In this document: one piece after another, positions 12,874 to 59,705 of the stretch
Position numbering within the stretch: position 1 is the first letter of the stretch
Layout of the letters: every line of letters starts with the position of its first letter
From: an uncultured Candidatus Saccharibacteria bacterium
GTDB lineage: Bacteria; Patescibacteriota; Saccharimonadia; Saccharimonadales; JACDBH01
Assembly (NCBI GenBank): GCA_964642275.1
Contig: CAZXOA010000005.1
Span: 2,410-66,409, forward strand
DNA: 64,000 nt
Direction: 5' to 3'
Program-made: the position numbers and the translations under genes
Notes under the pieces: generated by a model
The model's input: the letters and a program-made list of their open reading frames with translations, nothing else
The model's database searches: none
What the model was told of the DNA's origin: nothing

Positions 12874-12959
12874 CCCGGCACAATTTTTCCCACGCAAATG
12901 CTCCCGCACCGTATTGCATATACGGCTTGGTCCGCTTTGCGAGGAAGAAATTGCACCGG
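12874..12959. repeat. Palindromic intergenic repeat, family 1, copy A
   Basis: Imperfect long hairpin centred on CGTATTGCATATACG (12910-12924). By eye about three quarters identical to copy B at 29656-29742. Confidence 0.6.
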
Positions 12960-13232
12960 ACATTCGCATGCGTAAACCCTTAGGACTAGCGGAACGTGAC
13001 TGACCGCTCAGAGTCTTGCAAGAAATCCTCCGTTGTTATGACGGGGGATTTCTTTATGCTCAAAGAGGATTTGCAAGGGCGGTTCTTGCAATAAGCAATG
13101 CTGTGGTGTGTTTCTGACCAGAGGGTGTGGATAAGCACTGGCATTTTAACAGTAATTGTGCTACGGTAAAAGAGTTCCTGAGTAATCGTGACTGACCGCT
13201 CGAAACAAAAACAATTTTAATAAAGACCGCCC

Positions 13233-13256
13233 CACCTCTGGACGAGAGGTGTTTTG
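13233..13256 (+). terminator. Rho-independent terminator-like hairpin
   Basis: CACCTCT-GGACG-AGAGGTG (7-bp stem) followed by TTTTGTGTG. It lies 430 nt downstream of the nearest plus-strand CDS. Confidence 0.5.
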
Positions 13257-13302
13257 TGTGGTAGAATTTGTGTTGTCCGAGCATAAGTAGTGCTTGTTTG
13301 TT

Positions 13303-13377
13303 GGCCCCATCTTCTAACGGTTAGGAAATCGGGTTTTCATCCCGGCAATCGGAGTTCGATTCTCCGTGGGGTCACCA
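13303..13377 (+). tRNA. tRNA-Glu (anticodon UUC), CCA encoded
   Basis: Manual cloverleaf: acceptor GGCCCCA/TGGGGTC, D arm TTCT..AGGA, anticodon stem TCGGG/CCCGG with loop TTTTCAT (UUC), T arm CGGAG-TTCGATT-CTCCG, then ACCA. Confidence 0.9.
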
Positions 13378-13453
13378 AGTGGGCACTATCTTGCCGTCTG
13401 GACTATAAACACGTTTCAAAACAAAGCATAAGCGTTTAAAATAAAGGGAAATT

Positions 13454-14896
13454 ATGAATACAACACGCAAAGTGCCGGTTGTGCCACTGGAGCGATACAA
13501 GCGGACAAAGATCATTGCCACAGTTGGTCCGGCAACCGACAGCTACGAAGCTGTTCTCGAGCTTATCAAGGCTGGAGCTAACGGTATCCGCCTCAATTTC
13601 AGCCACGGTGATCACGAGGAACACGGCCGTCGTATCAAGTGGGTGCGCAAAGCATCACGCGAATACGGTAAGCCGGTTGCAATTATCCAGGATCTGCAGG
13701 GTCCAAAGATTCGCCTGGGTGATTTCGAGGGCATTATCAACGTCCAAGAAGGTCAGGAAATCCGCCTGGGCTACAAAGCCAATTATGAAAAAACAGGCAT
13801 TATTCCTATTCAGTATGACCTGAGCAAAAAGGTCAAGCGCGGCGAGCGTATGTATATCTATGACGGCAAAGTTCGTACGACGGTGACATCGGTACGTGGC
13901 GACATCTTGCATGCGCGCGTTGAGAACGATGGCATCCTCATCAAGCGCAAAGGGCTTAATCTGCCTGATACTGATTTTGGCGGCGATATCATTACTAAAA
14001 AGGATAAAGAGGATCTTGCTTTTGGCTCAACCCAAGATATCGACTATGTTGCGCAGAGTTTTGTGCAGACGGCAGACGATATCCGCAACATGCGCAAACT
14101 CATAAAGAATCTTGGTATGAACGCCAAGATTATTGTCAAGTTTGAGACGCGCTCCGCCGTGCAGAACCTTGAGGATATTGTGCGCGAGGCCGACGCGATT
14201 ATGATTGCCCGCGGCGACCTGGCCGTTGAGACGCCGCCGGAGAGCGTGCCTATTATCCAGCGGCAGCTGATTGGTCTGGGCGTCAAGTATGCCAAACCGA
14301 CTATTGTGGCAACCCAGATGCTGTTTAGTATGACCGAGATGCCCGAACCAACCCGTGCAGAAGTGTCTGACGTGGCAACCGCAGTACTGGTGGGTGCCGA
14401 CTGCGTGATGCTCAGCGACGAAACTGCCAGTGGACGCTATCCAGTCAAATCTGTCGAAGTCATGAAGCGGGTTGTATTGTATACCGAGCAGAATGCACCC
14501 GTGAAGCCTGTGTTTATTGACGAGAGTGCGGCACGTGTCCAAAATCGCCAAGAGGCGATATCGACAGCAGTCGTGCGGCTTGCCAAGAATGTGCGTGCCC
14601 ACGCTATTGTTGCCGAGACAAAGTCTGGTGCAACAGCCATGCAGATTGCAGCGCTGCGTTCAGAGATACCTCTGATTGCCGTAACGTCTGACAGTCGTGT
14701 GGCAAATCAGCTGGCAATTGTCTTCGGGGCAAAAAGCTACGTTCGCCCGGATGACAAGCATGCCGCGACCAAGCTTACTAACTGGCTGCGTTCGAACAAT
14801 GTTCTGGCTGCCGGTGATATTATTGTGAGTTGCTCCGGCCAGTATCCAGGAGTTGTAGGAACGACCGACACAATTAAGGTTAGAGTTCTCGAATAA
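13454..14896 (+). CDS. pyk: Pyruvate kinase
   Basis: 480 aa. RTKIIATVGPAT...GANGIRLNFSHGDHEEH...IQDLQGPKIRLG...MIARGDLAVE are classic pyruvate kinase motifs. Confidence 0.95.
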   Translation: MNTTRKVPVVPLERYKRTKIIATVGPATDSYEAVLELIKAGANGIRLNFSHGDHEEHGRRIKWVRKASREYGKPVAIIQDLQGPKIRLGDFEGIINVQEGQEIRLGYKANYEKTGIIPIQYDLSKKVKRGERMYIYDGKVRTTVTSVRGDILHARVENDGILIKRKGLNLPDTDFGGDIITKKDKEDLAFGSTQDIDYVAQSFVQTADDIRNMRKLIKNLGMNAKIIVKFETRSAVQNLEDIVREADAIMIARGDLAVETPPESVPIIQRQLIGLGVKYAKPTIVATQMLFSMTEMPEPTRAEVSDVATAVLVGADCVMLSDETASGRYPVKSVEVMKRVVLYTEQNAPVKPVFIDESAARVQNRQEAISTAVVRLAKNVRAHAIVAETKSGATAMQIAALRSEIPLIAVTSDSRVANQLAIVFGAKSYVRPDDKHAATKLTNWLRSNNVLAAGDIIVSCSGQYPGVVGTTDTIKVRVLE

Positions 14897-14904
14897 GGGA
14901 TGAG

Positions 14905-14995
14905 TCTGTAGCGTGTGACCTGTCACCTAACATTAACCTGCGATGAATGGCTACATGGTAATTGTTACAGCTGCGTCACATGTGACAGGCTAATT
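14905..14995. repeat. Palindromic intergenic repeat, family 2, copy 1
   Basis: Contains CGTGTGACCTGTCAC, ATGGCTACATGGTAATTGTTACAG and GTCACATGTGACAGGCTAAT. These motifs recur at 22411-22556. Confidence 0.45.
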
Positions 14996-15046
14996 GCTAA
15001 TTAATCTCAAGATGCTTATACTAAAGTTCAAAGTGGGTGGGGCTAC

Positions 15047-16336
15047 ATGAGTTTCAATAAAAAAACTGTGCGCGATATAGACCTACGAGGCAAACGTGTC
15101 CTGATGCGGGTGGATTACAACGTTCCAATCGCAGACGGCAAAGTTGCCAGCGATTACCGGCTGAATATGAGTTTGCCAACCATCAAATACATCTTGGAGC
15201 AGGACTGCAGCCTGGTGCTGATGTCGCATCTTGGCCGCCCGGAAGGTAAGCCGGATAAGAAGTATTCTCTAAAGCCGGTTGCGGAGAGGCTGTCGAAGCT
15301 TCTTGATAGACCGGTGGCATTTGCCGATGACTGTATAGGTGCTAAGACGCTCGAGCAAGTAGATGGATTGAAGCCAGGCGAAATTATGCTGCTCGAAAAC
15401 GTGCGGTTCCATCCCGAAGAAGAGGCGAATGACGAGGCTTTTGCCAAGCAACTCGCAGCGTATGGCGATGTATTCGTGCAGGATGCCTTTGGCGTGGCGC
15501 ATCACGGGGCAGTGTCGGTGTCGGAGATACCAAAGTTTCTGCCCAGCGTCGCCGGACTGCTGCTGGAGCGCGAGGTCGACACTATTACCCGCGTCATGGA
15601 AAACCCGGAACGGCCCCTGATGGCAATTGTCGGCGGCGCCAAGATATCCGACAAAATCAAGGTGCTTAACAGACTCATAGAGATTGCCGACGTGATTGCG
15701 ATTGGCGGGGCTATGGCCAATACCTTTCTGCTGGCCGAAGGCATACAGACCGGCAAGAGCCTAACAGAGCCCGATGACGTGCCAACCGCGCGCGAGATAC
15801 TGGCGAAGGCACGCGAAAAGTCCAAAAAGCAGCATTTTATTTTCTACTTACCGCAAGACGGCGTGGTGGCAACCGAACTTGAGGATCCAAAGAGCACGCG
15901 TATCGTTGATTGGGATGCGCACGTCATTGCTGATATCGAGGCATTTCCGAAACGTCCGGCACATGAAGCAAGCCGGGTTAAGGCAGATGAGCGGATCTTG
16001 GATATTGGTCCGTTTTCTGGATCTTTTATTGCAGGCAGTTCACAGCTTGCCAAGACGGTTATCTGGAACGGTACCATGGGTGTGACCGAGACAAGAGGCC
16101 GGAATAATGATCCGGTTGGCCCGTTTGCACACGGTACGGATCTGGTTGTTGAGGCGCTGCTTGGCCATCATGGACACAAGCCATTCACGGTGGTTGGCGG
16201 CGGCGACACGGTATCATTTGTTGAGAGCCGTGGGCTGACAAAAGCTTTTGGACATGTGTCTACCGGCGGCGGGGCAAGCCTGGAGCTTATGGAGGGCAAG
16301 AAACTCCCCGGAGTCGAAGCGCTCTTAGATAGATAG
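15047..16336 (+). CDS. pgk: Phosphoglycerate kinase
   Basis: 429 aa. LRGKRVLMRVDYNVPI...MSHLGRP...VGGGDT...STGGGASLE. Confidence 0.95.
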   Translation: MSFNKKTVRDIDLRGKRVLMRVDYNVPIADGKVASDYRLNMSLPTIKYILEQDCSLVLMSHLGRPEGKPDKKYSLKPVAERLSKLLDRPVAFADDCIGAKTLEQVDGLKPGEIMLLENVRFHPEEEANDEAFAKQLAAYGDVFVQDAFGVAHHGAVSVSEIPKFLPSVAGLLLEREVDTITRVMENPERPLMAIVGGAKISDKIKVLNRLIEIADVIAIGGAMANTFLLAEGIQTGKSLTEPDDVPTAREILAKAREKSKKQHFIFYLPQDGVVATELEDPKSTRIVDWDAHVIADIEAFPKRPAHEASRVKADERILDIGPFSGSFIAGSSQLAKTVIWNGTMGVTETRGRNNDPVGPFAHGTDLVVEALLGHHGHKPFTVVGGGDTVSFVESRGLTKAFGHVSTGGGASLELMEGKKLPGVEALLDR

Positions 16337-16461
16337 CACACTCATTTTGAGAGTGGTCATCCGGCTGATTTGTAGGACATTCTTCCATCGTATCCCCCTA
16401 TACGCTTCCAGAATGGAGGCCTCCAAATCAGCTCAAATGACCCTTGGCTCAAAATGTGTGC
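16336..16461. repeat. Palindromic intergenic repeat, family 1, copy C
   Basis: A ~125-nt imperfect palindrome (GCACACTCATTTTGAGAGTGGTCAT ... ATGACCCTTGGCTCAAAATGTGTGC) with core CGTATCCCCCTATACG (16389-16404). It shares TTTTGAGAGTGGT (16345-16357) with copy D. Confidence 0.6.
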
Positions 16462-16560
16462 TTAACGGTGGCCTGATGAAGGCACTGAGCCACTCAGGAT
16501 TGAATGAAATTGTAAAATTGTAAATTGAAAATTCCCCTGATACACTTAAGCATAAGAAGT

Positions 16561-17358
16561 ATGAACATAGATAAACGCACTCTCATCATAGGTAACTGGA
16601 AAATGCATCTTAATACCATGCAGGCTAGCGTTCTTCTGCATCGGTTGCAGGAGCGCATTCGTATATATCGTGATGTAGAAGTGGTACTGGCGCCAAACAC
16701 ACTCGTTCTGCAGCCGCTCAGTCTGCAAATCGACAGGCGTAAATTCAGGCTGGCTATCCAGAACGCTCACCAGAAGCAGCAAGGTGCCTATATGGGCGAC
16801 GTGAGTATGACTATGGTAAGGGACCTTGTGCACTATGCAATAGTCGGCCACTCTGAGAGAAGAGTTTATTTTGGCGAGACCAACAAGGATACGGGAGAAA
16901 AGGTGGCGGCAGCCTTTCAGAACGGTATCGTCCCTGTTTTATGTATAGGAGAAAACAAAACAGAGCGTCTTGAGCGGCAGTCTAAGAGGGTTGTGTACAA
17001 TCAGTTAGTAGCTGGCCTCAAAAACGTGACTGCAGAAGAGGTTGCACAGATGGCCATTGCCTATGAGCCTGTATGGGCAATCAGCACCTTCGGGGGCGAA
17101 CTGGCAACACCAGAGCAGGCAAAAGAGATGATGGATTACGTGCGGTTTCAGGTGCGCGAGATGTTCGGCCGCAAGGCGGCTGAGGCCGTCAGGGTTTTGT
17201 ACGGCGGCAGCGTGGATAATGAAAATGCACGGGGCTATCTTGGCATAGAGGGCTGCGATGGTGCAATTATAGGCAATGCCAGCATGAATTATTTTAAGTT
17301 TTCCGAGATAGTCACAGCCGCCTATCAGATCCGTCAAGAAATCGGTGAGGGTGCATAA
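16561..17358 (+). CDS. tpiA: Triosephosphate isomerase
   Basis: IIGNWKMH, HSERR, AYEPVWAIS and YGGSV motifs. The ATG at 16561 is preferred over the TTG at 16525 given in the ORF track. Confidence 0.9.
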   Translation: MNIDKRTLIIGNWKMHLNTMQASVLLHRLQERIRIYRDVEVVLAPNTLVLQPLSLQIDRRKFRLAIQNAHQKQQGAYMGDVSMTMVRDLVHYAIVGHSERRVYFGETNKDTGEKVAAAFQNGIVPVLCIGENKTERLERQSKRVVYNQLVAGLKNVTAEEVAQMAIAYEPVWAISTFGGELATPEQAKEMMDYVRFQVREMFGRKAAEAVRVLYGGSVDNENARGYLGIEGCDGAIIGNASMNYFKFSEIVTAAYQIRQEIGEGA

Positions 17359-18353
17359 TGCCAGCGCTTGACGAAGACGACTCGAAAGTTATGGATGTGA
17401 GCAAACCCGGCAAGGGCAAACCTGTCGGCACTTCGCGGCCAGTTGTTGCACCAGTTGTATCCGAGCCTGCAGAAGACAACAGCGTCAGCGTATCCGTACC
17501 AGTGAGCGAACCAGTTGAAGCACTTCGGACTTCACCCGGTTCACACAAGACAATAGAGCCGCTGAGCGCAGATCTGCAGCCAGAGGACAAGAAGAAGGAC
17601 GATACCGCCAACACCGAATCAGTACCGGAGGATGGGGATGTGTCTGATTCCAGTGACGGAGCAGATGACGCTGCGGGCGTTGATGCTCTGGCATCAACCA
17701 CCGAAACCAAGAGAGAAGCTGCCAAGAAGGCCGAAGAGCAGGCTAAAAGGGACGCTGAACTACAGGCGCTCATTGCCAGCAGGAAATATGTAGTACCTAT
17801 CAGCGGGACCTCTGGCGGTGGCAGTAAGGCACGTGTATGGGGTATACCGCTGGTCTTGATAGCCATAGTCGCGGGCGGCTACTTTCTGGCAGACGCAGGC
17901 GTATTCGGCGACAGCGTGAAAGTGCCGTTTGAAATAATCAAGAATTCTAAAGCGCAGACAGTCGCAGATACCTCTACAGCCGCAAGTGTCGAAGAAGAGC
18001 AGGATAAGCCTGCCGGGCAGGAAGAGCAGAAGACCGAACAGGAATCATCAGAGCCGGCAGGCAATGCTTCTGTTGCTCCTGAGGTGCGTGCACGGGATGG
18101 TGACAGGAAGAATGAGCTGAAAAATTTGCAGCAGAAGCTAGAGACGTACTTCAATGACAATGGCGAATACCCATTATCATTGAGCGGGCTAATCCCTCGG
18201 CCCACTACGGCCGAGCTTACAGACGACAGGGGCGCAAACTATAGCTATACGAGCAATGGTCAATCGTACACGCTGGCTGCTCAGCTCGAAAACACAAACG
18301 ACCCGGACGCGGAAAGCGACGGCAGTTACCTCCTTCGCTCTATAAACGAATAA
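17358..18353 (+). CDS. Membrane-anchored protein with an acidic disordered N-terminus and a pilin-like C-terminal domain
   Basis: 331 aa. One TM helix (VWGIPLVLIAIVAGGYFLADAGVF). The C-terminal segment RARDGDRKNELKNLQQKLETYFNDNGEYP resembles the start of the globular domain of type IV pilin/pseudopilin-like proteins (pattern recognition only). Confidence 0.65.
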   Translation: MPALDEDDSKVMDVSKPGKGKPVGTSRPVVAPVVSEPAEDNSVSVSVPVSEPVEALRTSPGSHKTIEPLSADLQPEDKKKDDTANTESVPEDGDVSDSSDGADDAAGVDALASTTETKREAAKKAEEQAKRDAELQALIASRKYVVPISGTSGGGSKARVWGIPLVLIAIVAGGYFLADAGVFGDSVKVPFEIIKNSKAQTVADTSTAASVEEEQDKPAGQEEQKTEQESSEPAGNASVAPEVRARDGDRKNELKNLQQKLETYFNDNGEYPLSLSGLIPRPTTAELTDDRGANYSYTSNGQSYTLAAQLENTNDPDAESDGSYLLRSINE

Positions 18354-18374
18354 GTGCCTGCTCTGTTAGAATAA

Positions 18375-21035: not shown

Positions 21036-21059
21036 TGAGCCAGGTAGACAGAGGAAAAA

Positions 21060-22400: not shown

Positions 22401-22410
22401 ATAAAGAATG

Positions 22411-22556
22411 ATTAGCCTGTCACTTGTAACATGTCACGATAATGTGACGTGTGACCTGTAATAGTGAAGGACCTCAAAGTGGCAATTTATTGTTACAAGT
22501 TACACGTTAACTCATGGCTACAGGCAACATGTTACAGGGTAATTTGCCTGTAACGT
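22411..22556. repeat. Palindromic intergenic repeat, family 2, copy 2
   Basis: ATTAGCCTGTCACTTGTAAC..GACGTGTGACCTGTAAT..ATGGCTACAGGCAACATGTTACAGG..CCTGTAACG. It shares CGTGTGACCTGT (12 nt exact) and other motifs with 14905-14995. Confidence 0.45.
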
Positions 22557-22583
22557 ACGTTGGGCGTCTGTTAGAATACCAGC

Positions 22584-23009
22584 ATGACGTATGTTCATGA
22601 TGGTTTTAATTACACGCTCCGGATTGAGAAGGGTGAGCTGGTTGTTGAGACATTGCTTGAATTTATTCGCGAAAAAGATATCAAAGGCGCGTGGGTGCTG
22701 GGCCTTGGCGGCCTCATGTGGGCCGAACTCGGGTTCTATGATCTGAATACGCAAGAATACGCCTGGCAGAAGTTTGACGAGCTGCTTGAACTGACCAACC
22801 TAACGGGCAATATTGCCTGGCAAGACGGCAAGCCTGTACTGCATGCACATGCAACGGTATCAGACGTAAGCTTCCACGCCCACGGCGGCCACCTGCGCGA
22901 GGCCGAAGCCGCTGGCACGGTAGAACTCTTAATCCACGTGTGGAATAACGAAGAAGGCTTGGCCCGCCAAAAAGACAAACAAACTGGGTTAAACCTGCTT
23001 AGTTTATGA
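22584..23009 (+). CDS. PPC (DUF296) domain protein
   Basis: 141 aa. The pattern ...LRIEKGELVVETLLEFIREKDIKGAWVLGLGGL...LTGNIAW.DGKPVLHAHATVS...GGHL is typical of the PPC/DUF296 fold. Confidence 0.75.
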   Translation: MTYVHDGFNYTLRIEKGELVVETLLEFIREKDIKGAWVLGLGGLMWAELGFYDLNTQEYAWQKFDELLELTNLTGNIAWQDGKPVLHAHATVSDVSFHAHGGHLREAEAAGTVELLIHVWNNEEGLARQKDKQTGLNLLSL

Positions 23010-23797: not shown

Positions 23798-23812
23798 AGT
23801 AAGGAGAATCTT

Positions 23813-24706: not shown

Positions 24707-24793
24707 TACCTAAAAAGTCCTTGCACATTCCCAGAAGAGGCGTATAACGGTATATAGATTTTATAAAACGCTCTCTAAAACGAGGAAAACAAC

Positions 24794-25222: not shown

Positions 25223-25632
25223 GGGGCTGAATAGCTCGACATTTGGACATTTACAAGTTGGTGCCAGCAGGCCGGTTGTCTGAACGTTATCCGGACAAAC
25301 CAAATAGATGCAAAAACATCTGATCGTGTAGCTGGTCTTAGCAACGAGCTCGTAGCTTCGCTACGTAGCATGTTCGCTACCCCAGTACGCGTAGCTGCCT
25401 AATTTAGACAGCGACTGCAAGTGAGACATCAGATATCACGAAGTGGTCTTATATTTTTCTGATTGCTCAAGCCCTATGACTCATAGTGTTTGTTAAGATT
25501 TAGAGTTGCAGTGATTCATGTTCTTGTCAGTTCCAATCATGAATAGCTAAAGAAACCAAGTGATCTGAATAAGCCTGTAGAAAGCCAGCAAGTAACCGAA
25601 TGGACGCGGGATCATACCCGCCAGCTCCACCA
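25223..25632 (+). ncRNA. ssrA: tmRNA (transfer-messenger RNA)
   Basis: The 5' end GGGGCTGAATAGCTCGAC and the 3' end GGACGCGGGATCATACCCGCCAGCTCCACCA closely match the conserved tRNA-like ends of bacterial tmRNA. An internal tag reading frame ends ...SMFATPVRVAA-TAA (stop at 25400-25402). Confidence 0.85.
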
Positions 25633-29350: not shown

Positions 29351-29655
29351 GAAATTCTCTCAGCGGCTTTGCAGCTTGTTGCAATGAGCCAAATCCTGTC
29401 GCCAGCTTGACAAGCCGCGGATCTGCCCACGGATTCTGCTGACCTACCTCCTGACCTGTTGCAATGTCTATAACAGGAGCGATTTTTGCCTCATTGTCAG
29501 AGGAAAAAGAGAGATCATGTGCGGGAGCAAATTCTGACATATGTGTTTAATTATACTCTGAAATGATAGTACATCAGAAAGGAGCTGCAGGTGTGACATT
29601 TATCACACCTGACCCGCACACCTCATCGGCCAGCCGTCCGCCGATGGTTTCGGCG

Positions 29656-29742
29656 CCCTGCACGATTTTTCCCAAGCAAATGCTCCTTCACCGTATTGCC
29701 CATACGCCCTAGTCCGTTTTGCAGTGAAGAAATCGCATAGGG
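29656..29742. repeat. Palindromic intergenic repeat, family 1, copy B
   Basis: CACGATTTTTCCCAAGCAAATGCTCCTTCACCGTATTGCCCATACG...GTGAAGAAATCGCA. Core at 29692-29706. Homologous to copy A. Confidence 0.6.
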
Positions 29743-29790
29743 CATCCAAATGTGCGAGTCAGGCCCGGGATAACACGGTACAATGGAGCC

Positions 29791-38916: not shown

Positions 38917-39530
38917 GAGGTAATTCTTCTTATTTTACATTATATCACACCTTGTCAAGTGTGTCAACCCCCGCAATGAGCCAAAGTCAATAATAACTCT
39001 GTTAAAATGGCATTTCTTTGTATAAGGAACCAAATCGCAGATGTTCTTCCGGTGAAGAACCAAACCCCTTCTTTTCTGTGTCGACAGAAAAGAAGGCAAA
39101 AGAACTCGCCCGCACCCCTGCCATGACTTGTCTGTTGTCAGAAGGCACAATACGCAAGGCGGACTCCCTTCGGTCGGGGTATGAAGTTTCATATTTGAGT
39201 TCATACCCTAGCGCCTTGCTCTCTATTGTGCTTTTGACTAACGTCCAAATCCTATGGCAGGAGTGCATGGGCATAGAAAACAGAAGCCGCCCTATGGCGG
39301 CGTTATTGGTAGCACCACTGGCAAGCCAGCGGTTTCTGCTTTTGTCCCGGCTTTCTAAAAACCGATGAAACAGGGCTGAAAAATAGCCGAGTCAAGCCGA
39401 AGCCTGCCCCGCTGTTCCGAAATAGAAGCGGGGATGCTTGTCATTCTTCGGCGCGGCTATTTTTCAGGTCTGGTTCAATCGTGTTTTTAGAACTGCCGAG
39501 TCGTTTTTTGGGTTCCCGTTTTTGTCGATA

Positions 39531-39553
39531 CAAAAATGGAACGATTCGGTTCC
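39531..39553 (-). terminator. Possible rho-independent terminator for the minus-strand gene 39600..40724
   Basis: On the minus strand this reads GGAAC-CGAATC-GTTCC followed by ATTTTTG. It overlaps an alternative 8-bp hairpin at 39549-39566. Confidence 0.35.
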
Positions 39554-39599
39554 TTATCTAAGGAACATTAATGATTTGTTTCTTTACAAAAGAAAACCC

Positions 39600-40724
39600 C
39601 TAATTGATAACAATATAATTGAACCGGCAGGTGGCGCCAGCAGGCGGATTGGTTGCAGTGGCGATAGAGAATTGAGTGGCGCTGACGTTGGTAATGTAAT
39701 AGCCGATGTTTGCGCAGCCGGGGCCGTTTGGTGTAATGATTGGGTGCGGGTTGTTGCTATTGAATGCGCCGGTAAAGAAAACAGTTGCCAGCACACCGGT
39801 ACCTGTGCCCCCGCCCGTGTTAATGGTAACGGTAGCGGCTGTATCCGTGCCGTTGACGCTAGCCGTTGCTCCGCTGCCGGCCGCTCCGCCTGTATTAACA
39901 CTGGGGTTGTTGCCGGAGATATTGATGCGGGTAATAGAAATCTGGTCAAAGTTGATGCCTTGGGCCGAAATAACACCGTTCACATTGAGATTGCCGCCGA
40001 TGGTGGCTTGCCCGCCGATATCCAGCCGCCCGCCGGCGTTGATACTGCCGGCCACTGTTAAGTTCTCGCCCATGCTTACCGTGCCAACAACATCCAATAT
40101 GCCCCCAATGGCCGTATTTCCAGCAGCTTGCAGGTCGTTTGTCGATAGCGACCCAAACGTACCAGACCCGGCAGCCTGGATACTGGGAATACTGAGTGCC
40201 CCGCCAATACGCAGCGCACCGGCCACATCAAGCGTGTCGCGCATAACAACCTTGCCGCTGATAACGGCGTTGGATTCGATAGTCAGGATTTGCTGCGGAT
40301 CGCCCACAATAGCGTCGGATGTTTTGAGCTGCTCCAGAGTCTCTTCAGTGATACGGGTGGTTTCTAGGCGGATTTCCGTCTCGCGTTTATTCATAAAATA
40401 CAGGACCACATAGGCAGCAACAGCTATCACCACTACCAGTATGAATAAGAGCAGATAGATATTAACTTTGCCAAGCAGCGCTTTAAAGCCTTTCGGCTTT
40501 GGTTTGGGTGCGGCGGCCGGATCTTTGTCTTGGTTTGATTCGTCAGCCATCGAATCGACGGCGGATTTTTTGGGGCCGGACTCAAGCGTGCCGTCGGCTT
40601 GCGACAGCTGTCCCATCAGCTCCTCGGGTGACTTGTCGGACTTTTGATTATCGGCAGAATCTGCCGGAGCACTGTTCTCAGGTGTGCCGACTGCCTGCTG
40701 CGGTGCTTTGTCTTTTTCTTCCAT
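39600..40724 (-). CDS. Membrane-anchored protein with a disordered N-terminus and a Gly-rich repetitive (beta-helix-like) ectodomain
   Basis: 374 aa. TM helix IYLLLFILVVVIAVAAYVVLYF. Repeats of the type VAGALRIGGALSI / AIGGILDVVGTVSMGENLTVAGSINAGGRLDIGGQATIGGNLNVNG. Confidence 0.7.
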   Translation of the reverse strand: MEEKDKAPQQAVGTPENSAPADSADNQKSDKSPEELMGQLSQADGTLESGPKKSAVDSMADESNQDKDPAAAPKPKPKGFKALLGKVNIYLLLFILVVVIAVAAYVVLYFMNKRETEIRLETTRITEETLEQLKTSDAIVGDPQQILTIESNAVISGKVVMRDTLDVAGALRIGGALSIPSIQAAGSGTFGSLSTNDLQAAGNTAIGGILDVVGTVSMGENLTVAGSINAGGRLDIGGQATIGGNLNVNGVISAQGINFDQISITRINISGNNPSVNTGGAAGSGATASVNGTDTAATVTINTGGGTGTGVLATVFFTGAFNSNNPHPIITPNGPGCANIGYYITNVSATQFSIATATNPPAGATCRFNYIVIN

Positions 40725-46334: not shown

Positions 46335-47055
46335 ATGAGGGTCGGACCCTCATATTCACAAAAATATTGTATAGTATGCAGATCTCTCAGAGATCGTTCG
46401 CAAGGCTGTATTTAAGTTCGTCGAGTATCTTCTTCTGGTCTTCGTAGTCAGAAATAAAATCCCTATAAATCCGCTTGTCATTATTAAAAAGACCAAGAAT
46501 ATGCGCAGTTTTTATCCATGCAGGTGTTGCGTCAGACATATAAAAGTGCAAGCTAGAATATGGCCATTCTTCGTAGTCCGATGGGTTGAGATGAATGTAC
46601 CGGCTGATGTGGTGCAGATAAGCATCCTTATAGATAGGGCTGGCCTTAAATTTACCTTGGAAGAGTGGCCCGATACGTTCGTACTTTTCGTTGAAGTACA
46701 TGCTGTATGACGTCGCCACTGCCCGCATTAAGTTGGTGACGCCGCCATTCTGCTTCTGGAATAGCAATAGATGGAAATGATTCGGCATAAGACAGTAGGC
46801 ATGTAGCTCAACATCGTTGATGAAGGTAGGGTAGGGCGACCCGACCTTGCGCGGTTCGCGATCAGCAGATAGGTATCTTTTTATCAATCTGATAAAAACT
46901 TTATAGTCACTGTCTTCAAGAAATATCTCTTGTTTGTTCTGTCCGCGGTTATATACATGATAGAAAGTATCATCTATATACACCTTCACAGTATTTTTTG
47001 CCGGCATAAAACATACTATATCACATAAATACAAAAATGAGGGTCCGACCCTCAT
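46335..47055 (-). mobile_element. Minimal IS200/RAYT-like unit: a Y1 transposase gene bracketed by perfect 19-nt palindromes
   Basis: ATGAGGGTCGGACCCTCAT (46335-46353) and its exact reverse complement ATGAGGGTCCGACCCTCAT (47037-47055) flank the gene. Each is itself a hairpin (ATGAGGG/CCCTCAT). Confidence 0.6.
46387..47007 (-). CDS. HUH/Y1 transposase, IS200-like / REP-associated tyrosine transposase (RAYT)-like
   Basis: YHVYNRGQNKQEIF, HUH motif AYCLMPNHFHLLL, and the catalytic Tyr region HISRYIHLNP. The start at Met-17 of the ORF-track product (47007) avoids the flanking hairpin. Confidence 0.8.
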   Translation of the reverse strand: MPAKNTVKVYIDDTFYHVYNRGQNKQEIFLEDSDYKVFIRLIKRYLSADREPRKVGSPYPTFINDVELHAYCLMPNHFHLLLFQKQNGGVTNLMRAVATSYSMYFNEKYERIGPLFQGKFKASPIYKDAYLHHISRYIHLNPSDYEEWPYSSLHFYMSDATPAWIKTAHILGLFNNDKRIYRDFISDYEDQKKILDELKYSLANDL

Positions 47056-47084
47056 GATCCTGGGGTGATGTTATAATATGTTGC

Positions 47085-48182: not shown

Positions 48183-48205
48183 AATTAGCGTGTTACAATG
48201 CATCT

Positions 48206-48682: not shown

Positions 48683-48703
48683 CCTCTGTTAGAATAAGCA
48701 AAT

Positions 48704-51106: not shown

Positions 51107-51195
51107 CTGTATATTATAACATAACAGTATAAAATATCAAACATAGCGGGTGCTTCTGTATAAAAGACGAGGTATCATGATACAATAAGGCGTAT

Positions 51196-52488: not shown

Positions 52489-52496
52489 GGCATACC

Positions 52497-54209: not shown

Positions 54210-54624
54210 GTTGGTGATCGGGCTGGATGTGGGCGAGCGCCGTATCGGCGTGGCGGTTGCATCGACAATTGCCAGAATACCAAACGCCCATTCGTATATA
54301 GACAGGCAAAAAACGCCGGATTACCTGCCGGTACTGACAAAGATTATGCAGGGGCAAGACGTCGAGGCAATTGTTGTCGGGCTGCCGCGCGGTATGGCCG
54401 GCCAGGATACAAAGCAAACAGAACAATCGCGCAATTTTGCCAGCGAGCTCACGGCCCGTGTCGAGGTACCGGTTGTGCTGCAGGACGAAGCTATGACATC
54501 GGTCATTGCGCAGGAGCGACTGCAATCCCGGGGCAAGCCCTACGAAAAGGGTGATATTGATGCCGAGGCAGCCGCGCTCATCTTGCAAGACTACTTAAGC
54601 AGCCGAGTAGGGCGTACAGCATGA
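54199..54624 (+). CDS. ruvX: YqgF/RuvX-family pre-16S rRNA nuclease (putative Holliday junction resolvase)
   Basis: VIGLDVGERRIGVAVAS...VVGLP......DE..TS pattern. Confidence 0.85.
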   Translation: MDNKLVIGLDVGERRIGVAVASTIARIPNAHSYIDRQKTPDYLPVLTKIMQGQDVEAIVVGLPRGMAGQDTKQTEQSRNFASELTARVEVPVVLQDEAMTSVIAQERLQSRGKPYEKGDIDAEAAALILQDYLSSRVGRTA

Positions 54625-55685
54625 AGCCATACAAACTAGGGAAAAACGGCGGCCGAAGATGGAAAAAGATTCTATTGGCTTTTGGTATTCTCGCGCTTGT
54701 CCTAGGCACCGTTGCTTACTTGGGTGTGCGGGCAGTGTACGAACGTAATTTACAGCCCGTCAATGCGGCCGACGCCAGCCAGGTTGCTTTCACGATCAGC
54801 AGCGGCGAGACGCCCGCAATCATAGCCGAGTCGTTGCAGACAAAGGACCTCATCAGATCTACTGCCGCTTTCTTGCAGTATGTTCGCAGCGAGCAGCTCG
54901 CCGAGAAGTTTATTGCTGGCACTTACAAACTGCAGCGGTCAATGACAGTACAGCAGATTGTGGAGATTCTTACTACCGGTCAGGTCGCAACGGATTTGTT
55001 TACTATTTTTCCGGGGCAGAGGATAGAATCGATCAGGCAGACGCTCATAGAGGTTGGCGAGTTCGCTCCGAGTGCGGTAGACCGGGCGCTTGATCCGCAG
55101 CAATATGCTGGTCATCCGGCACTTGTTGACAAGCCGGAGGGGGCAAGCCTGGAGGGTTATTTGTACCCTGATTCATACGAGCGCATAGCCGAGACCCAGC
55201 CGGAGACAATTATCAGGCAGGCGCTGGATGAAATGGCAGAAGCTCTGACACCGGATATACGCGCGGCTATTGCCGGCCACGGACTGAGCGTATTCGAGGG
55301 CATTATTCTAGCATCAATCGTCGAGAAAGAAGTAGGCGCGGTCGACATGAGCGGTAACGAGAACGACAACCGTGCAAAAGCTGCGCAGGTGTTCTTAAAG
55401 CGCCTTGATATTGGTATGATGCTGCAGTCGAACGCAACTGATCTGGCGGCTCTGGAGCGGGGCGACGAGTACGACACTTACAGTATTCCTGCACTTCCGC
55501 CGGGACCAGTCAGTAACGTCTCTGCAAGCTCGCTCAAGGCAGTCGCCTTTCCTGCGCCGACAAACTTTCTGTACTTTGTTTCGGGAACGGACTGCGTGAC
55601 TCGTTTCGGTGAGACACTGGACCAGCACGAGGCGCTCAAAGCGCAGTACGGTATTGCAACGCCAGACGACGAATGTCGGGGTTAA
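54621..55685 (+). CDS. mltG: Endolytic murein transglycosylase (YceG/MltG)
   Basis: N-terminal TM helix. The EGYLYPDSY and LASIVEKE motifs are typical of YceG. Confidence 0.85.
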   Translation: MKPYKLGKNGGRRWKKILLAFGILALVLGTVAYLGVRAVYERNLQPVNAADASQVAFTISSGETPAIIAESLQTKDLIRSTAAFLQYVRSEQLAEKFIAGTYKLQRSMTVQQIVEILTTGQVATDLFTIFPGQRIESIRQTLIEVGEFAPSAVDRALDPQQYAGHPALVDKPEGASLEGYLYPDSYERIAETQPETIIRQALDEMAEALTPDIRAAIAGHGLSVFEGIILASIVEKEVGAVDMSGNENDNRAKAAQVFLKRLDIGMMLQSNATDLAALERGDEYDTYSIPALPPGPVSNVSASSLKAVAFPAPTNFLYFVSGTDCVTRFGETLDQHEALKAQYGIATPDDECRG

Positions 55686-55709
55686 TGAACACGCAGGAAA
55701 AGGCTTCTT

Positions 55710-56816
55710 TTGGATATTCGAACGCAATCACAAATACGAAAACACGCAGCACGCCAAAAAGCTTTGGCTCCTGTAGGGCCTGCCGAGAGACAGCCGCCGC
55801 GCCGCAGACGCCGCAAGATGTCTCGCAAGGCGATTGTCCGCTACAGTATCATTGCCGGCAATTTGTGCATCGTGGGCTTCTTTATGTTTATGATCATCCG
55901 GTATTCCGGTTCCAACGCAGCAACGTATGGCCTCAGATCTTCCGACGAAGCAGCGGTGGCGAATCCGCTCGACCAGCTGTCGGCTGCGGACATAGCGGTC
56001 AATATTGCCCGTATGACAAATATCGCCGAAATGAACGCGGTGACCAACTACGCCGATACTATCAATGCCGAGCTTCTGACGTTCGGCGACAGCGCAGGCT
56101 TCACCCGCATGCCGCAGATTATGACCTCGAACCTCAAAACGCTGGCTGATATCATCGAATACGAGGTCAAACCGGGCGACACAGTACCCCTGCTTGCTGA
56201 GCGTTTTGCCGTCACTTCAGACAGCATTAAATGGTCGAATGATTTGGTGCACGATACGCTGCAGCCGGGACTTATTATTCTCATACCGCCTATGAATGGC
56301 ATGCTCTACACGCTCAGAGACGGTGACACGCCGCAGCGTATATCGCAGCTCTACAAGGTGTCTGTAGAAAGTATCATTGCCTTCAATGACATGGAGTTGA
56401 CCGGCTTTGTGCCCGGTACCCGCATATTCATTCCTAACGCACAGAAACCGACGCCGGTATTTAATTTCTTTGTGCGCTACGGTAATAACGGCTATGATCC
56501 CGGCTGGTGTACGTATTATGCCGCCGCCAAGGGCGGGGCACCGGGCGGATGGGGCCATGCGCGAACATGGGCTGTTGGTGCGGCGCGAACGCCTGGTTGG
56601 ATAGTAAGTAAGATTCCTGTCAAAGGCGCCATAGCCCAGACAACAAGTTTCCACTATTTTGGACACGTGGCAATAGTAGAGGACGTCAGGCAACAAAACG
56701 GCGAGCTGTATATCAAGTATTCAGACATGAACGGCATAGCTGGATTCAATGCGGTTGGCTATAGCGGCTGGGTCAAATCAGACTATTACCAAAATTACAT
56801 CTACCGCGTACAATAA
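55710..56816 (+). CDS. LysM-LysM-CHAP peptidoglycan hydrolase, paralog 1
   Basis: TM helix. LysM repeats (YEVKPGDTVPLLAERFAVTSDSIKWSN; YTLRDGDTPQRISQLYKVSVESIIAFN). CHAP Cys (GWCTYYAA) and His (GHVAIVEDV). TTG start; the alternative ATG is at 55818. Confidence 0.8.
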   Translation: MDIRTQSQIRKHAARQKALAPVGPAERQPPRRRRRKMSRKAIVRYSIIAGNLCIVGFFMFMIIRYSGSNAATYGLRSSDEAAVANPLDQLSAADIAVNIARMTNIAEMNAVTNYADTINAELLTFGDSAGFTRMPQIMTSNLKTLADIIEYEVKPGDTVPLLAERFAVTSDSIKWSNDLVHDTLQPGLIILIPPMNGMLYTLRDGDTPQRISQLYKVSVESIIAFNDMELTGFVPGTRIFIPNAQKPTPVFNFFVRYGNNGYDPGWCTYYAAAKGGAPGGWGHARTWAVGAARTPGWIVSKIPVKGAIAQTTSFHYFGHVAIVEDVRQQNGELYIKYSDMNGIAGFNAVGYSGWVKSDYYQNYIYRVQ

Positions 56817-56944
56817 CATGCCGCAAGGCCCACGCTCCTCACGCTACTTCTTTAGAGGTTAAACCTCTAACAGAGAGGGAATTTGCTAGTTTTGCCTGTT
56901 TACAGGGGTGGGCACAATGTCCTTTTTGTTTTCAAGTAATATTG

Positions 56945-56973
56945 TTGACTTTTTATGAAGCTTATGCTAATAT
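56945..56973 (+). promoter_or_regulatory. Sigma-70-like promoter (TTGACT - 17 nt - TGcTAATAT)
   Basis: TTGACT at 56945-56950, a 17-nt spacer, then TAATAT at 56968-56973 preceded by TGC. It lies ~140 nt upstream of the second LysM-CHAP gene. Confidence 0.5.
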
Positions 56974-57115
56974 GATACCATCCCGGATTGTAGGTTCGGG
57001 CGGGCGAATTTGACCATTGGAGTGATTATTGCTAGTATGAAGATTGCAAAATGACGATTTTGTTCATAAAAAGTTCGTCTTTTGCCACCAGGAGTAAACT
57101 ATTCGTAAGCTACCA

Positions 57116-58273
57116 ATGCTCGTGAAACGGAATGCTGCCCCGACCAATATTTCCAAGCAGCTCCCCCTTTTGTCAATCAAAAATCCAGCCGTTTATTTCC
57201 GCCGCCACCGCAAGCGTGTTATTCGGTACGGCCTGGTGTTCGGAAACCTGGCAATTGTGCTAGTGGCTATTTTTGCTGTGGTCCGGAGTTCCGGAGGCAA
57301 TGCTGCCAATTACAGTGCGCTCAATACGGCAGTAGAGGCGCGCGTGTCTAACCCTCTTGATACCTTGTCGGCTTCAGAAATTGCCGCAAATATTGCTCTC
57401 ATGACCAAAGCTCCCGAGACGGAGGCTATCATAAGCCACTCGAATCTGGTGTGGGCAGAGCTGAGCGCCGCCACTCGACATCAAAGCAGCGGGACGGTGC
57501 TGTTGTCGCAGATCTTGAGCGGGGAAATCAAGACAAAGGAAGATATTGTAGAGTACACGACAGTCGATGGTGACACACTTGAGGCGCTTGCTACACGGTT
57601 TGGTGTGACCTCGGACAGTATCCGGTGGAGCAACGGCCTGAGTACTGCACGCCTTAGGGCCGGAACGGTCCTGCAAATCCCCCCGGTTAACGGCATTGTG
57701 TACAAGGTCAAGGCAGGTGACACTGCCGCCAGCCTGGCTAGCAGATACCACACCAGCGAAGTTCTTATCACTCGTTTTAACGACGCAGAAGTTGCCGGTC
57801 TGCAGGTAGACGAGTTTATAGTCATCCCGGACGGTGAAATCCGTGTGCAGGCTGCGCCCCGGCCGACCAGCAGCTTGAGCTATCGTTCGGTTTTCAGCCG
57901 CAATGCTACTTTCATGGCCCGCTACACCAGCTATAGACCGTATCCCATAGGCGGTTATGGACGTGGTTGGTGTACCGACTGGGCGTCGTATCGGGCTGCC
58001 CAGCTTGGCAATCATGTCGGAAATTGGGGCAATGCCATCAGCTGGTTGCGCAATGCCAGGAACGAAGGGTATTATGGCGGCCCGGTACCAAGGGTTGGAG
58101 CGGTCGTGTACTTCCATATGGGCGGTCTTGGCCATGTCGGTGTCGTCGAGGAAGTTTCGGATGACGGCACTATGATCAAATTCTCTGATATGAACGGTTT
58201 GGCGGGTTGGGGCAACGCTGCCAAGACGAATGATTGGATGCCCGCATCTGGCTACAGCTACATTTATCGGTAA
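57116..58273 (+). CDS. LysM-LysM-CHAP peptidoglycan hydrolase, paralog 2
   Basis: Same architecture as 55710..56816: YTTVDGDTLEALATRFGVTSDSIRWSN; YKVKAGDTAASLASRYHTSEVLITRFN; GWCTDWAS; GHVGVVEEV. Confidence 0.8.
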   Translation: MLVKRNAAPTNISKQLPLLSIKNPAVYFRRHRKRVIRYGLVFGNLAIVLVAIFAVVRSSGGNAANYSALNTAVEARVSNPLDTLSASEIAANIALMTKAPETEAIISHSNLVWAELSAATRHQSSGTVLLSQILSGEIKTKEDIVEYTTVDGDTLEALATRFGVTSDSIRWSNGLSTARLRAGTVLQIPPVNGIVYKVKAGDTAASLASRYHTSEVLITRFNDAEVAGLQVDEFIVIPDGEIRVQAAPRPTSSLSYRSVFSRNATFMARYTSYRPYPIGGYGRGWCTDWASYRAAQLGNHVGNWGNAISWLRNARNEGYYGGPVPRVGAVVYFHMGGLGHVGVVEEVSDDGTMIKFSDMNGLAGWGNAAKTNDWMPASGYSYIYR

Positions 58274-58318
58274 TAACCTCTTCTCGTATCAGAAGAATTG
58301 TTGTATAATTAGCACCAT

Positions 58319-59584
58319 ATGTTTGTCGATAAGGTAAAAGTGAATGTGGCTGCCGGTAACGGCGGTAATGGCATCGTGAGTTTCCGCCACGAGATTTATG
58401 TTGATCGCGGCGGTCCGGACGGCGGCGACGGCGGCGACGGCGGCGACGTAGTGCTGGTGGCCAGCCGCAATCAAAATACACTGGCGAACTTCCGGTTTCA
58501 GAAGCTTGTGAAGGCAGATGACGGCAAAAACGGCGGCAGCCAAAAAAAGCACGGCAAGAGCGGCAAGGACCTCGAAGTTGCAGTGCCGGTCGGTACGGTT
58601 GTCATTGATAACCAGGGCGGAGAATTAGCCGACCTGCGTGAAGACGGGCAGAAGACAGTTATCGCTTACGGCGGCAAGGGCGGTTTTGGCAATGCACACT
58701 TTGTCAGCTCGGTACGCCAGGCACCAAAGGTTGCCGAACGCGGCGAACCAGGCGAATCATTTGAGGTGACGTTCGAGCTGCGCATGATTGCTGATGTCGG
58801 CTTGGTAGGGCTGCCGAATGCTGGCAAATCTACGCTCCTCAGCATTATCAGCAATGCTCGCCCAGAGATAGCAAATTATCCGTTTACAACGCTTGTGCCT
58901 AATCTTGGAGTGGTTGATGTGGATGAAGGAGTATCGTATCTGTTTGCGGATATCCCCGGTCTTATCGAAGGCGCCTCAGAGGGCAAGGGTCTGGGCGATG
59001 AATTTCTCCGCCACATCGAACGTACCAAGGTGCTTGTGCACCTCATCGATGCCTATCAGGACGACGTCACCAGTGCTTATCAGACAATCCAGAATGAGCT
59101 TCGTCAGTACCGGACCGATCTGACTGATAGGCCGCAGGTTGTCGTACTGACTAAAGTAGAGGGACTCGACGACGAAATCGTCGCCGGCCAGCTGGAGGCC
59201 TTGCAGGCGGTTGTACCCGCCAATACACCGGCTATGGCAATCTCGGCTCAGAGCAGGCAGGGAGTCAAAGAGCTACTGTACGTCATCAAGGAGCAAGTGC
59301 AGGCAGCCGCTGCCGCTGAGGCTCCAGAGCAGGAAGACGTGCCGGTATACCGCATAAAGCCAGAGCAGCAGCCATGGAAACTCATCAAGCGCGACAACGG
59401 GTATTTGCTACGAGGCAAAAAGATTGAGCGCTTTGCACAGCGGACTGATTTTGACAACGAAGAGGGAGTGCGCCGCTTGCGCGACATCATGAAGAAGATG
59501 GGTATTATGCGCGAGATCGAGAAGCAAGGTATCGAAACGGGCCAGCGTATTGATATCAGCACCATAGGCTCTATAGAGTATTAG
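58319..59584 (+). CDS. obg: GTPase Obg
   Basis: MFVDKVKVNVAAGNGGNGIVSFR...GGPDGGDGGDGGDV, then GLPNAGKSTLL, DIPGLIEGA and a C-terminal OCT-like domain. Confidence 0.95.
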   Translation: MFVDKVKVNVAAGNGGNGIVSFRHEIYVDRGGPDGGDGGDGGDVVLVASRNQNTLANFRFQKLVKADDGKNGGSQKKHGKSGKDLEVAVPVGTVVIDNQGGELADLREDGQKTVIAYGGKGGFGNAHFVSSVRQAPKVAERGEPGESFEVTFELRMIADVGLVGLPNAGKSTLLSIISNARPEIANYPFTTLVPNLGVVDVDEGVSYLFADIPGLIEGASEGKGLGDEFLRHIERTKVLVHLIDAYQDDVTSAYQTIQNELRQYRTDLTDRPQVVVLTKVEGLDDEIVAGQLEALQAVVPANTPAMAISAQSRQGVKELLYVIKEQVQAAAAAEAPEQEDVPVYRIKPEQQPWKLIKRDNGYLLRGKKIERFAQRTDFDNEEGVRRLRDIMKKMGIMREIEKQGIETGQRIDISTIGSIEY

Positions 59585-59589
59585 TGCGT

Positions 59590-59705
59590 GAGTGTTTTGA
59601 GAGTGGTAATTTGTGCAAAGCTAGAGCACTATTTCGGAGGCGTATATGCAATACGACGAAGAAATATCTCTAGCTTTGCACAAATTACCCTTAGCCGAAA
59701 AGACT
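59590..59705. repeat. Palindromic intergenic repeat, family 1, copy D
   Basis: Perfect 22-bp stem GGTAATTTGTGCAAAGCTAGAG (59605-59626) / CTCTAGCTTTGCACAAATTACC (59668-59689). The loop carries CGTATATGCAATACG (59641-59655), the exact reverse complement of the copy A core. Confidence 0.65.

Follow-up and report, generated by a model that had tools for sequence, protein, structure and literature searches.

In a 64-kb stretch of DNA from an uncultured Candidatus Saccharibacteria bacterium (hereafter the window, meaning the whole stretch), four long intergenic hairpins, here called copies A to D, probably represent a short, non-coding insertion element of palindromic structure that occurs in two related subfamilies. 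This would be a Saccharibacteria-specific bacterial transposable element of the miniature inverted-repeat type (MITE), of the ERIC, Correia and RUP kind, co-transcribed as a hairpin at mRNA ends, a reading to which we assign a probability of about 0.62. The pattern CGTATN{4,8}ATACG matches four times in the window against 0.20 expected, an enrichment of approximately 20-fold, and none of 100 shuffles reached four matches. Each of these cores forms the tip of a long imperfect palindrome that folds as a single hairpin of 108-126 nt within an intergenic gap, with fold z-scores on the better strand ranging from -3.1 to -9.2 across copies A-D. A sequence-only reading of this DNA had already reported the four loci with their cores, coordinates and sequence strings, the extended hairpin at each, a perfect 22-bp stem in copy D and a core in D that is the exact reverse complement of that in A, and all of these observations were confirmed, the window containing only these four matches to the core pattern (Table 1). 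The same reading had proposed that the repeats behave like REP or MITE elements, and this view is borne out by clean insertions relative to empty orthologous sites, by TA on both flanks and by patchy presence; together with the hairpins, such TA-flanked insertions and such patchiness are defining properties of bacterial MITEs (ERIC, Correia, RUP).

Table 1. Coordinates of the four element copies and of associated features in the window
Feature	Position	Strand	Details
Copy A (type 2)	12856-12978	+	hairpin 12863-12970; nhmmer E = 2e-35
Apex core of A	12910-12924		CGTAT-TGCAT-ATACG
Copy C (type 1)	16336-16472	+	hairpin 16336-16461; covariance-model match 16330-16473, 121.7 bits, E = 2e-29
Copy C blocks	16345-16357; 16460-16471		5' block TTTTGAGAGTGGT; tail GCTTAACGGTGG
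Apex core of C	16389-16404		CGTAT-CCCCCT-ATACG
Copy B (type 2)	29639-29761	+	hairpin 29645-29752; nhmmer E = 1e-33
Apex core of B	29692-29706		CGTAT-TGCCC-ATACG
Copy D (type 1)	59584-59718	+	hairpin 59590-59705; 5' block 59595-59607; fold z = -7.8; covariance-model match 59580-59720, 101.9 bits, E = 3e-24
Perfect 22-bp stem of D	59605-59626 paired with 59668-59689		inverted repeat
Apex core of D	59641-59655		CGTAT-ATGCA-ATACG; inside 22-bp stem
Tail of D	59708-59719	+	CTTGACAGTGGT; near-direct repeat of 5'-arm block TTTGAGAGTGGT
Sigma-70-type promoter	59789-59818	+	TTGACA-18-TATAAT with TG; 12/12 consensus

Anatomy and distribution of the two subfamilies

Judged by their sequences, the four copies fall into two related subfamilies, type 1 (C and D) and type 2 (A and B). 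Copies A and B are 77% identical over 108 ungapped nt (12863-12970 and 29645-29752; alignment z = 33 against dinucleotide shuffles), in agreement with an earlier estimate by eye of about three quarters. Copies C and D (16336-16461 and 59590-59705; z of about 5.5 against the same type of shuffle) have in common the outer-arm sequence TTTTGAGAGTGGT, as had been noticed before, and also the 3' arm ACCCTTnGCnnAAAA. Between the two types, on the other hand, the common parts are limited to the apex, CACCGTAT-loop-ATACGGC, and a short AATTT/AAATT stem segment; an alignment of A with the reverse complement of D (z = 8) owes its score to an identical 15-mer, and a covariance model of type 1 recovers A only at E of about 0.01 and B at about 2. 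The initial notion of one family of four is therefore right in that a true repeat family exists and extends beyond this genome, but it has to be divided into two subfamilies that share the apex module and the AATTT/AAATT segment only. The word GAAGAA(A)T (GAAGAAAT), which had been taken as a further sign of kinship, was abandoned as such, being common in the window (12 matches versus 2.2 expected) and located at non-homologous positions in the two subfamilies.

The mobile units somewhat exceed the hairpins, as C and D include a conserved 3' tail, GCTTGACAGTGGT, and A and B a conserved 5' extension of approximately 50 nt, giving a unit of about 135-140 bp for type 1 and a hairpin of about 125 bp plus the extension for type 2. 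A type-1 unit starts with TA, G(Y)GCGC, a basal stem, TTTTGAGAGTGGTAAT, a variable stem and GGACATTCTTCC, and ends with CGTAT-loop-ATACG, the complementary arms, the tail and TA. Its near-invariant blocks are, in order, TTTTGAGAGTGGTAAT, GGACATTCTTCC, CGTAT/ATACG, TCCAGAATGGAAGCC, AAATTACCCTTGGCTCAAAA and the 3' tail, the last being present in nearly all type-1 copies, and the stems between the blocks are wholly different in sequence from copy to copy while pairing is retained. In the window the motif common to tail and block has six matches against 0.94 expected, and a solo tail-like copy, CTTGATAGTGGT, stands at 59755-59766, beyond D. A small open reading frame (ORF) within the element was considered and rejected, as indels in loop and stems shift the reading frame.

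Conservation of the fold is pronounced. In a model-based alignment of type 1, the proportion of paired cells is 92%, whereas shuffles reach 82% and slid controls 30-48%; changes on both sides affect 20 of the 41 pairs, in 86 such cells. None of 500 shuffles attained these values; for type 2, compensatory changes affect 11 of 36 pairs among only four sequences. These changes show that selection maintains the hairpin, along with several of its sequence blocks. The reverse-complement strand folds better in 17 of 19 type-1 copies, an effect that stems from the conserved blocks.

To determine how widely type 1 occurs, a pattern consisting of TTTTGAGAGTGGT-N20-50-CGTAT-N4-7-ATACG was scanned over one genome per species for 185,579 species, and all 17 matches were in metagenome-assembled genomes of Candidatus Saccharibacteria. 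A covariance model, R1, was built from type-1 copies, and additional loci were fetched through homologues of PGK and L7/L12; the comparison loci from other Saccharibacteria genomes bear the numbers L003 to L031. Such a scan of relatives had been suggested along with the original observation, and it yielded 25 non-redundant type-1 copies scoring 95-149 bits, in addition to the similarity above shuffled controls already described. As the opposite strand of these copies scores only 17-67 bits, a discrimination of about 80-100 bits, the type-1 element is asymmetric. No type-1 copy other than C and D was found when the window was scanned with R1, and in about 247 kb not selected for the element the density was about seven copies, or roughly one per 35 kb. 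Type 2 has two relatives, both found through synteny in L024, one of which (L024:7006-7129) is orthologous to A behind a DUF11/PKD surface-protein gene and the other inverted upstream of the same gene, bringing the collection to 25 type-1 and four type-2 copies from many loci and genomes. A metagenome scan for the A/B pattern returned only two chance matches lacking a long hairpin.

Taken together, these scans suggest that type 1 is specific to Saccharibacteria. The family is previously undescribed, although its kind is already known from ERIC, Correia and RUP: Rfam at gathering threshold gave no match on the elements across the window and 16 loci, with L10_leader, tRNA and tmRNA recovered as positive controls; around A and D, relaxing the threshold to E values up to 10 gave nothing meaningful; type 1 had no match in viral contigs (IMG/VR); and a literature search that included literal sequence strings produced no relevant report of the element.

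Hairpins with the same CGTAT-loop-ATACG apex and different arms were also observed at L004:2822-2950 behind ssb, at L026:3010-3170 (near 3083) between alaS and a GSDH gene, and at L024:13509-13592 inside an intein-containing uvrD/pcrA gene, which suggests that the apex may define a wider superfamily.

Insertion at gene edges and position on transcripts

Comparison of filled with empty orthologous sites, in every case between species or genera, indicates how the element is placed. The rplJ-rplL gap measures 21-26 nt in four genomes, whereas in L011 and L013 about 140 nt are cleanly inserted, the empty sites reading TA-AGGAG and the filled ones TA-element-TA-AGGAG. The stop codon of pyk is TAA at empty sites (the window, L020) and TAG at filled ones (L005, L021, L022, L024), where its G is the first base of the element. 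The pyk-pgk gap is filled in these same four genomes, and L020 is empty both there and between pgk and tpiA. The pgk-tpiA gap is filled in the window only and empty of the element in L020, L021, L022 and L025, four relatives with PGK proteins 80-85% identical in which it amounts to 22-57 nt or holds an unrelated insert. In the window, the first base of C (G 16336) completes the TA-G stop codon of pgk, PGK is 429 aa long versus 430-431 aa in relatives, and a remnant of the displaced pgk 3' end (GATGAAGGCAC) stands after the element. At D, TA at 59582-59583 supplies the first two bases of the obg stop codon TAG, completed by the element's G as at C, and a second TA lies at 59719-59720. The neighbours of D were identified by Pfam as obg and, downstream, an exonuclease gene. 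Sites upstream of rplK and ybaB are likewise filled in some genomes and empty in others.

For type 2, copy A starts about 50 nt past the stop codon of a DUF11/PKD surface-protein gene (11180-12805; Pfam), and its site is empty in L022, where CCTAAG is followed directly by TAAGGAAACCC; in the window about 165 nt separate CCTAAG from TAAACCC, the inserted block extending from about 12815 to about 12977. Copy B is situated about 40 nt upstream of the tatD start, with a short minus-strand ORF, itself downstream of metG, on its other side (metG and tatD by Pfam).

Of the 25 type-1 copies, 21 have TA at the left junction, and in 15 a TA comes immediately after GTGG(T) at the right. The junctions are consistent with a TA target-site duplication, although a Y1-type mechanism could mimic the pattern; the filled and empty sites show presence/absence variation, with gain and loss of copies among related genomes; and the element lands at a TA on a gene edge, either that of a stop codon or that of the TAAGGAG Shine-Dalgarno region of highly expressed genes, where it comes to lie between promoter and ribosome-binding site. 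With 125-145 nt it is also small (below 200-300 bp), non-coding, and dispersed in multiple copies. At L006, L009 and L012 a full copy is trailed by a truncated 3' half-copy, indicating that copies decay. Another length difference was observed between L024:11297-11613 and L025:3431-3602, where PGK is identical and yet a 145-nt tandem duplication, taking in the first tpiA codons and a GC-rich palindromic insert (ATAAGCGCTATCGCTTATGAGCGGGGATATTCCCCGCTCAT...), distinguishes the two loci; it reflects either a further kind of small insertion or an error in assembly.

The position of the copies with respect to gene ends, an aspect raised by the sequence-only reading, turned out to be a strictly fixed orientation at transcript ends. 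Ten of the 25 type-1 copies stand behind the stop codon of a co-directional gene, with the coding strand reading TTTTGAGAGTGGT; the genes ahead of them comprise pgk and obg (window), pyk (four genomes) and members of a paralogous family of about 350 aa. The remaining 15 have the reverse orientation, with the hairpin foot about 10 nt upstream of the Shine-Dalgarno sequence of genes for S18, L27, L11, L7/L12, EF-Tu, NusA, RecA, YbaB, YebC and an RRM protein. In all 25 the TA-G(Y)GCGC end points toward the gene and the tail toward the longer spacer. A link between orientation and replication was rejected, since orientation follows the nearest gene edge and not one DNA strand.

Because three of the four window copies come after a gene 3' end, ordinary intrinsic terminators or unrelated chance palindromes might be considered, and a terminator role had been among the first suggestions. 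However, no T-run follows any copy, a terminator scan calls none of A-D, the core is enriched as described above, and homologous copies with covariation occur in many genomes, so that this explanation is extremely unlikely and the intrinsic type of terminator was rejected. Promoters are found beyond the elements: a sigma-70-type promoter about 70 nt past D serves the downstream exonuclease gene, and by our own reading TTGTAA-17-TACACT lies downstream of C, so C and D end the pgk and obg transcription units.

The reverse-oriented copies may, in turn, mark the other end of the message. At empty ybaB sites, about 20 nt of leader follow an extended -10 box, TGnTACAAT; in L031 the element has this box on one side and the Shine-Dalgarno sequence on the other. 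A promoter-like match accompanies five reverse-oriented copies, its -10-like hexamer ending no more than 3 nt from the outer end of the tail, and in several others inspection of the alignment by eye showed -10-like hexamers 0-20 nt upstream of the tail. We infer from these matches that the reverse-oriented hairpin would lie at or near the mRNA 5' end. The tail sequence TTGACAGTGGT itself was examined as a promoter and rejected, no copy having a -10 box at 16-18 nt; in L021 and L022 it merely overlaps the -35 region of the pgk promoter. At L008:5230-5290, the stretch separating a type-1 element from ybaB also contains another -10-like box (TGTATAAT) and a small hairpin (TAATTACTCCTTAGAAAAGGAGTAATTA) by which the Shine-Dalgarno sequence would be sequestered.

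Mobility, selection and alternative explanations

The window itself encodes a candidate mobilising enzyme, which raises the alternative that the copies are REPIN/REP-like elements moved as single-stranded DNA hairpins by a RAYT-like Y1 (HUH) transposase. The gene, at 46387-47010 on the minus strand, encodes an IS200-like, RAYT-like Y1_Tnp protein (PF01797, E = 2.4e-9) with, by our own reading, the HUH motif HFHLL and the motif RYIHLNP. Its homologues are single-copy and syntenic beside mnmA in four other Saccharibacteria genomes (L026-L029), as domesticated RAYTs would be, and one bears the JGI name RayT; the gene looks like a domesticated transposase. Enzymes of this type act on hairpins, and their left-target/right-end mechanism would resemble a TA duplication. 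On the other hand, the window gene is flanked (46335-47056) by inverted 20-nt palindromes, CATGAGGGTCGGACCCTCATG, inside 45-nt inverted repeats, and in all five genomes by a short palindrome, (A/T)AGGGTCnGACCCT(A/T), which differs from the elements and has no further occurrence in the 413 kb sampled. In L026-L029 type-1 copies are absent within 6 kb of the gene, the type-2 profile finds none in L026 or L027, and the window copies nearest to it, B and D, are more than 12 kb away. The elements also lack a GTAG or CGTC tag and are not oriented on a single strand relative to the coding, presumably leading, strand. This REP-RAYT form of the proposal that the repeats are transposase substrates is accordingly very unlikely.

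Several observations speak against the insertion-element reading as well. No DDE transposase of the IS630/Tc1 type was present among the Pfam-annotated genes of about 250 kb of sampled Saccharibacteria DNA, nor was a transposase whose ends match the element found at the sampled loci. Although the arms form inverted repeats, the outermost termini (GYGCGC... and ...CAGTGGT) do not, and the tail makes the unit asymmetric. The flanking TA could belong to the element or result from a Y1 left-target/right-end mechanism, the comparisons of filled and empty sites being between species only. GC content is 0.34-0.53, so the elements are not AT-rich, and the variable stems differ greatly among copies of one genome, which indicates that there was no recent burst. 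Appositions of G:T and A:C in the stems number 14 versus 16 behind stop codons and 26 versus 39 ahead of Shine-Dalgarno sequences, neither context showing a significant strand bias, so that a signature of selection on one transcribed strand is missing. Finally, loop nucleotides are conserved and the element recurs at rplL, rplK, rpsR, ybaB and pyk in diverged genomes, which would fit a functional cis-element equally well as a target preference.

These last points are those on which the idea of a conserved cis-regulatory structured RNA relies, that is, a shared, non-mobile element, 5' leader or intercistronic, belonging to a regulon of translation and housekeeping genes, with its apex and internal loops read by a protein or ligand. 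The strong covariation with invariant loop nucleotides across species, the constant distance of 15 copies to the Shine-Dalgarno sequence of ribosomal-protein, EF-Tu, NusA, RecA and other genes, and the recurrent sites (rpsR in L003 and L004, rplL in L011 and L013, rplK in L015 and L030, ybaB in L008 and L031) would all be expected of it. It does not account for the 10 of 25 copies that are oppositely oriented directly behind stop codons, for the rplL site being empty in four of six genomes and the rplK and ybaB sites in others, for clean TA-flanked insertions, for tandem half-copies at L006, L009 and L012, or for wobble pairs without strand bias, and we consider it unlikely. A T-box-like cis-regulatory leader, with a single orientation and general retention, was rejected on the same grounds, 10 copies being opposed to 15 and many leaders being empty. 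Comparisons by eye with a K-turn, rRNA boxA, a DnaA box, an N15-type telomere site and the T-box (AGnGUGGUA resembles a T-box sequence) were dropped for lack of fit, as was one with integron attC, where GCTTAAC in some tails approximates RYYYAAC but lies outside the stem and the copies are dispersed beside housekeeping genes.

The symmetry of the two strands could alternatively mean that selection acts on both strands, on DNA or on the ability to be mobilised rather than on one transcript. A DNA-level element, such as a cruciform or a binding site for gyrase, a nucleoid protein or a polar barrier beside highly transcribed genes, would require both strands to fold; consistent with this, the pairs are almost wholly Watson-Crick with G:T about as frequent as A:C on both strands, one element serves both transcriptional orientations, the helices have conserved sequence around an AT-rich centre favouring extrusion, and the tail always faces the promoter-bearing spacer. 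An apex loop that varies in length (4-7 nt), however, argues against a dimeric protein reading double-stranded DNA, no partner protein is known, and every copy is inside or at the end of a transcription unit, as an RNA role predicts, which makes a purely DNA-level function distinctly unlikely.

The MITE reading is strengthened by comparison with known families. Bacterial MITEs are shorter than 200 bp and have TA termini, target-site duplications and long stem-loop transcripts, and ERIC affects mRNA stability in Yersinia in an orientation-dependent manner (PMC2229807, PMC3184786). ERIC/IRU (127 bp) resembles the Saccharibacteria element as an imperfect palindrome of about 130 bp that is non-coding, intergenic and inserted in either orientation, with TA termini and duplication, unusual cross-species conservation and co-transcription with flanking genes, the latter being presumed for the present element (PMC2229807, PMC3184786). 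There is, in contrast, no sequence relationship, the phylum is a different one and the effect of ERIC on mRNA has been measured, while that of the element described here is inferred; ERIC also lacks the asymmetric 3' tail, the conserved blocks between covarying stems and the absolute gene-edge orientation rule. The Correia elements of Neisseria (NEMIS/CREE), with 100-155 bp, TA duplication, frequent location directly 5' of genes and transcription into long hairpins, are similar (PMC3184786), and Neisseria REP2, which brings a promoter and a ribosome-binding site immediately upstream of start codons (PMC3184786), recalls the copies abutting Shine-Dalgarno sequences. Unlike the present family, Correia elements have terminal inverted repeats of 24-26 bp, an IHF site and promoters of their own, whereas the TTGACA in the tail of the Saccharibacteria element has no properly spaced -10 box and the promoters lie outside it. 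RUP of Streptococcus pneumoniae, an IS630-Spn1-related MITE of 107 bp with TA insertion, intergenic location and about 100 copies (PMC2229807), differs in having ends that match a resident IS630 transposase gene, none such being found in the sampled Saccharibacteria loci.

Outside the MITEs, REP, BIME and REPIN sequences with their RAYT are comparable as extragenic palindromes at gene 3' ends with a single-copy Y1 transposase and long persistence of both, but REPs are 20-40 nt long, carry a GTAG or CGTC tag and flank their RAYT, whereas here single hairpins of 110-140 nt coexist with a Y1 gene flanked by an unrelated palindrome. The intercistronic RNase III hairpins of phage T7 are likewise paralogous, sequence-conserved stems with internal loops between genes and leave protective stems at mRNA ends after cleavage, but unlike the element they are not mobile and all have one orientation. 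Within the MITE kind, the family stands out by TA insertion in stop codons and Shine-Dalgarno regions, by its absolute orientation rule and asymmetric tail, by strong structural covariation and by its association with those genes of a reduced genome that are most highly expressed.

Neighbouring features and meaning for a reduced genome

The window contains a number of other features. A tRNA-Glu gene (13303-13377) lies downstream of element A, and a tmRNA gene (25223-25632) has an unusually long predicted tag peptide, AKTSDRVAGLSNELVASLRSMFATPVRVAA. Degenerate, CCG/ACG-rich tandem repeats of 12-27 nt at 10244-10462 have the appearance of a Pro/Thr-rich coding repeat region. An inverted repeat of 33 nt (39357-39486; 79% complementary, 64 nt between arms) sits at the gap between the ORFs 39018-39368 and 39438-40061. 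Two regions, 14905-14995 upstream of pgk and 22405-22560 upstream of a gene at 22584, are dense in a TGT(G/A/C)AC / GT(T/C)ACA motif (for example TGTGACCTGTCAC, GGCTACATGGTAATTGTTACAG and CAGGGTAATTTGCCTGTAAC) and are linked by a 20-nt inverted match (14975-14994 and 22411-22430); a weak R1 match (E = 0.13) falls at 22424-22504. They may represent an operator family or a decayed element. Nearly all long ORFs of the window are on the + strand and the cumulative GC skew climbs steadily, so that the genome appears strongly co-directional and signals at intercistronic boundaries would be especially relevant.

If the element is indeed co-transcribed, it would act as an RNA hairpin at the mRNA end. 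Copies C, D and A would be 3'-end hairpins right behind pgk, obg and the surface-protein gene, where they would stop read-through or 3' exonucleases and uncouple these genes from those downstream that have their own promoters. In other genomes, the hairpin of a reverse-oriented copy would stand at or close to the 5' end of mRNAs for ribosomal proteins and of tuf, recA and nusA, and the role at either end might be to protect from exonucleases, to provide a processing site or to attenuate read-through. Orientation-dependent effects on mRNA, as described for ERIC in Yersinia (PMC2229807), would then account for the fixed orientation. A function at the RNA level is plausible.

It is also conceivable, although we regard this extension as tentative and more doubtful than probable, that a domesticated MITE has become a lineage-wide mRNA-end module, whose invariant CGUAU/AUACG apex and internal loops would be read by a dedicated protein, the module fixing where the most highly expressed mRNAs begin or end and, with it, how stable they are. 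The protein partner could be an RNase, a stabiliser or a transcription factor, and the targets would comprise ribosomal proteins, EF-Tu, NusA, RecA and glycolysis genes.

Saccharibacteria (TM7) and other bacteria of the candidate phyla radiation (CPR) have genomes of roughly 1 Mb in which non-coding DNA is very scarce. To our knowledge, few regulators or mobile elements have been recognized in CPR bacteria. What is new here is a conserved hairpin family whose copies coincide precisely with the points where the most highly expressed genes of a reduced genome begin and end, which makes the family a candidate for the control of mRNA stability or processing. It also explains odd annotations of gene ends, for instance where the element provides the stop codon or where PGK is shorter by 1-2 residues, and the elements are usable as a marker for strain typing and genome rearrangement in an uncultured lineage. 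Should the domesticated module exist, it would amount to a post-transcriptional 'punctuation' replacing missing transcriptional regulators in reduced, largely co-directional genomes. In conclusion, the family suggests that small mobile palindromes persist under structural selection even in strongly reduced genomes.

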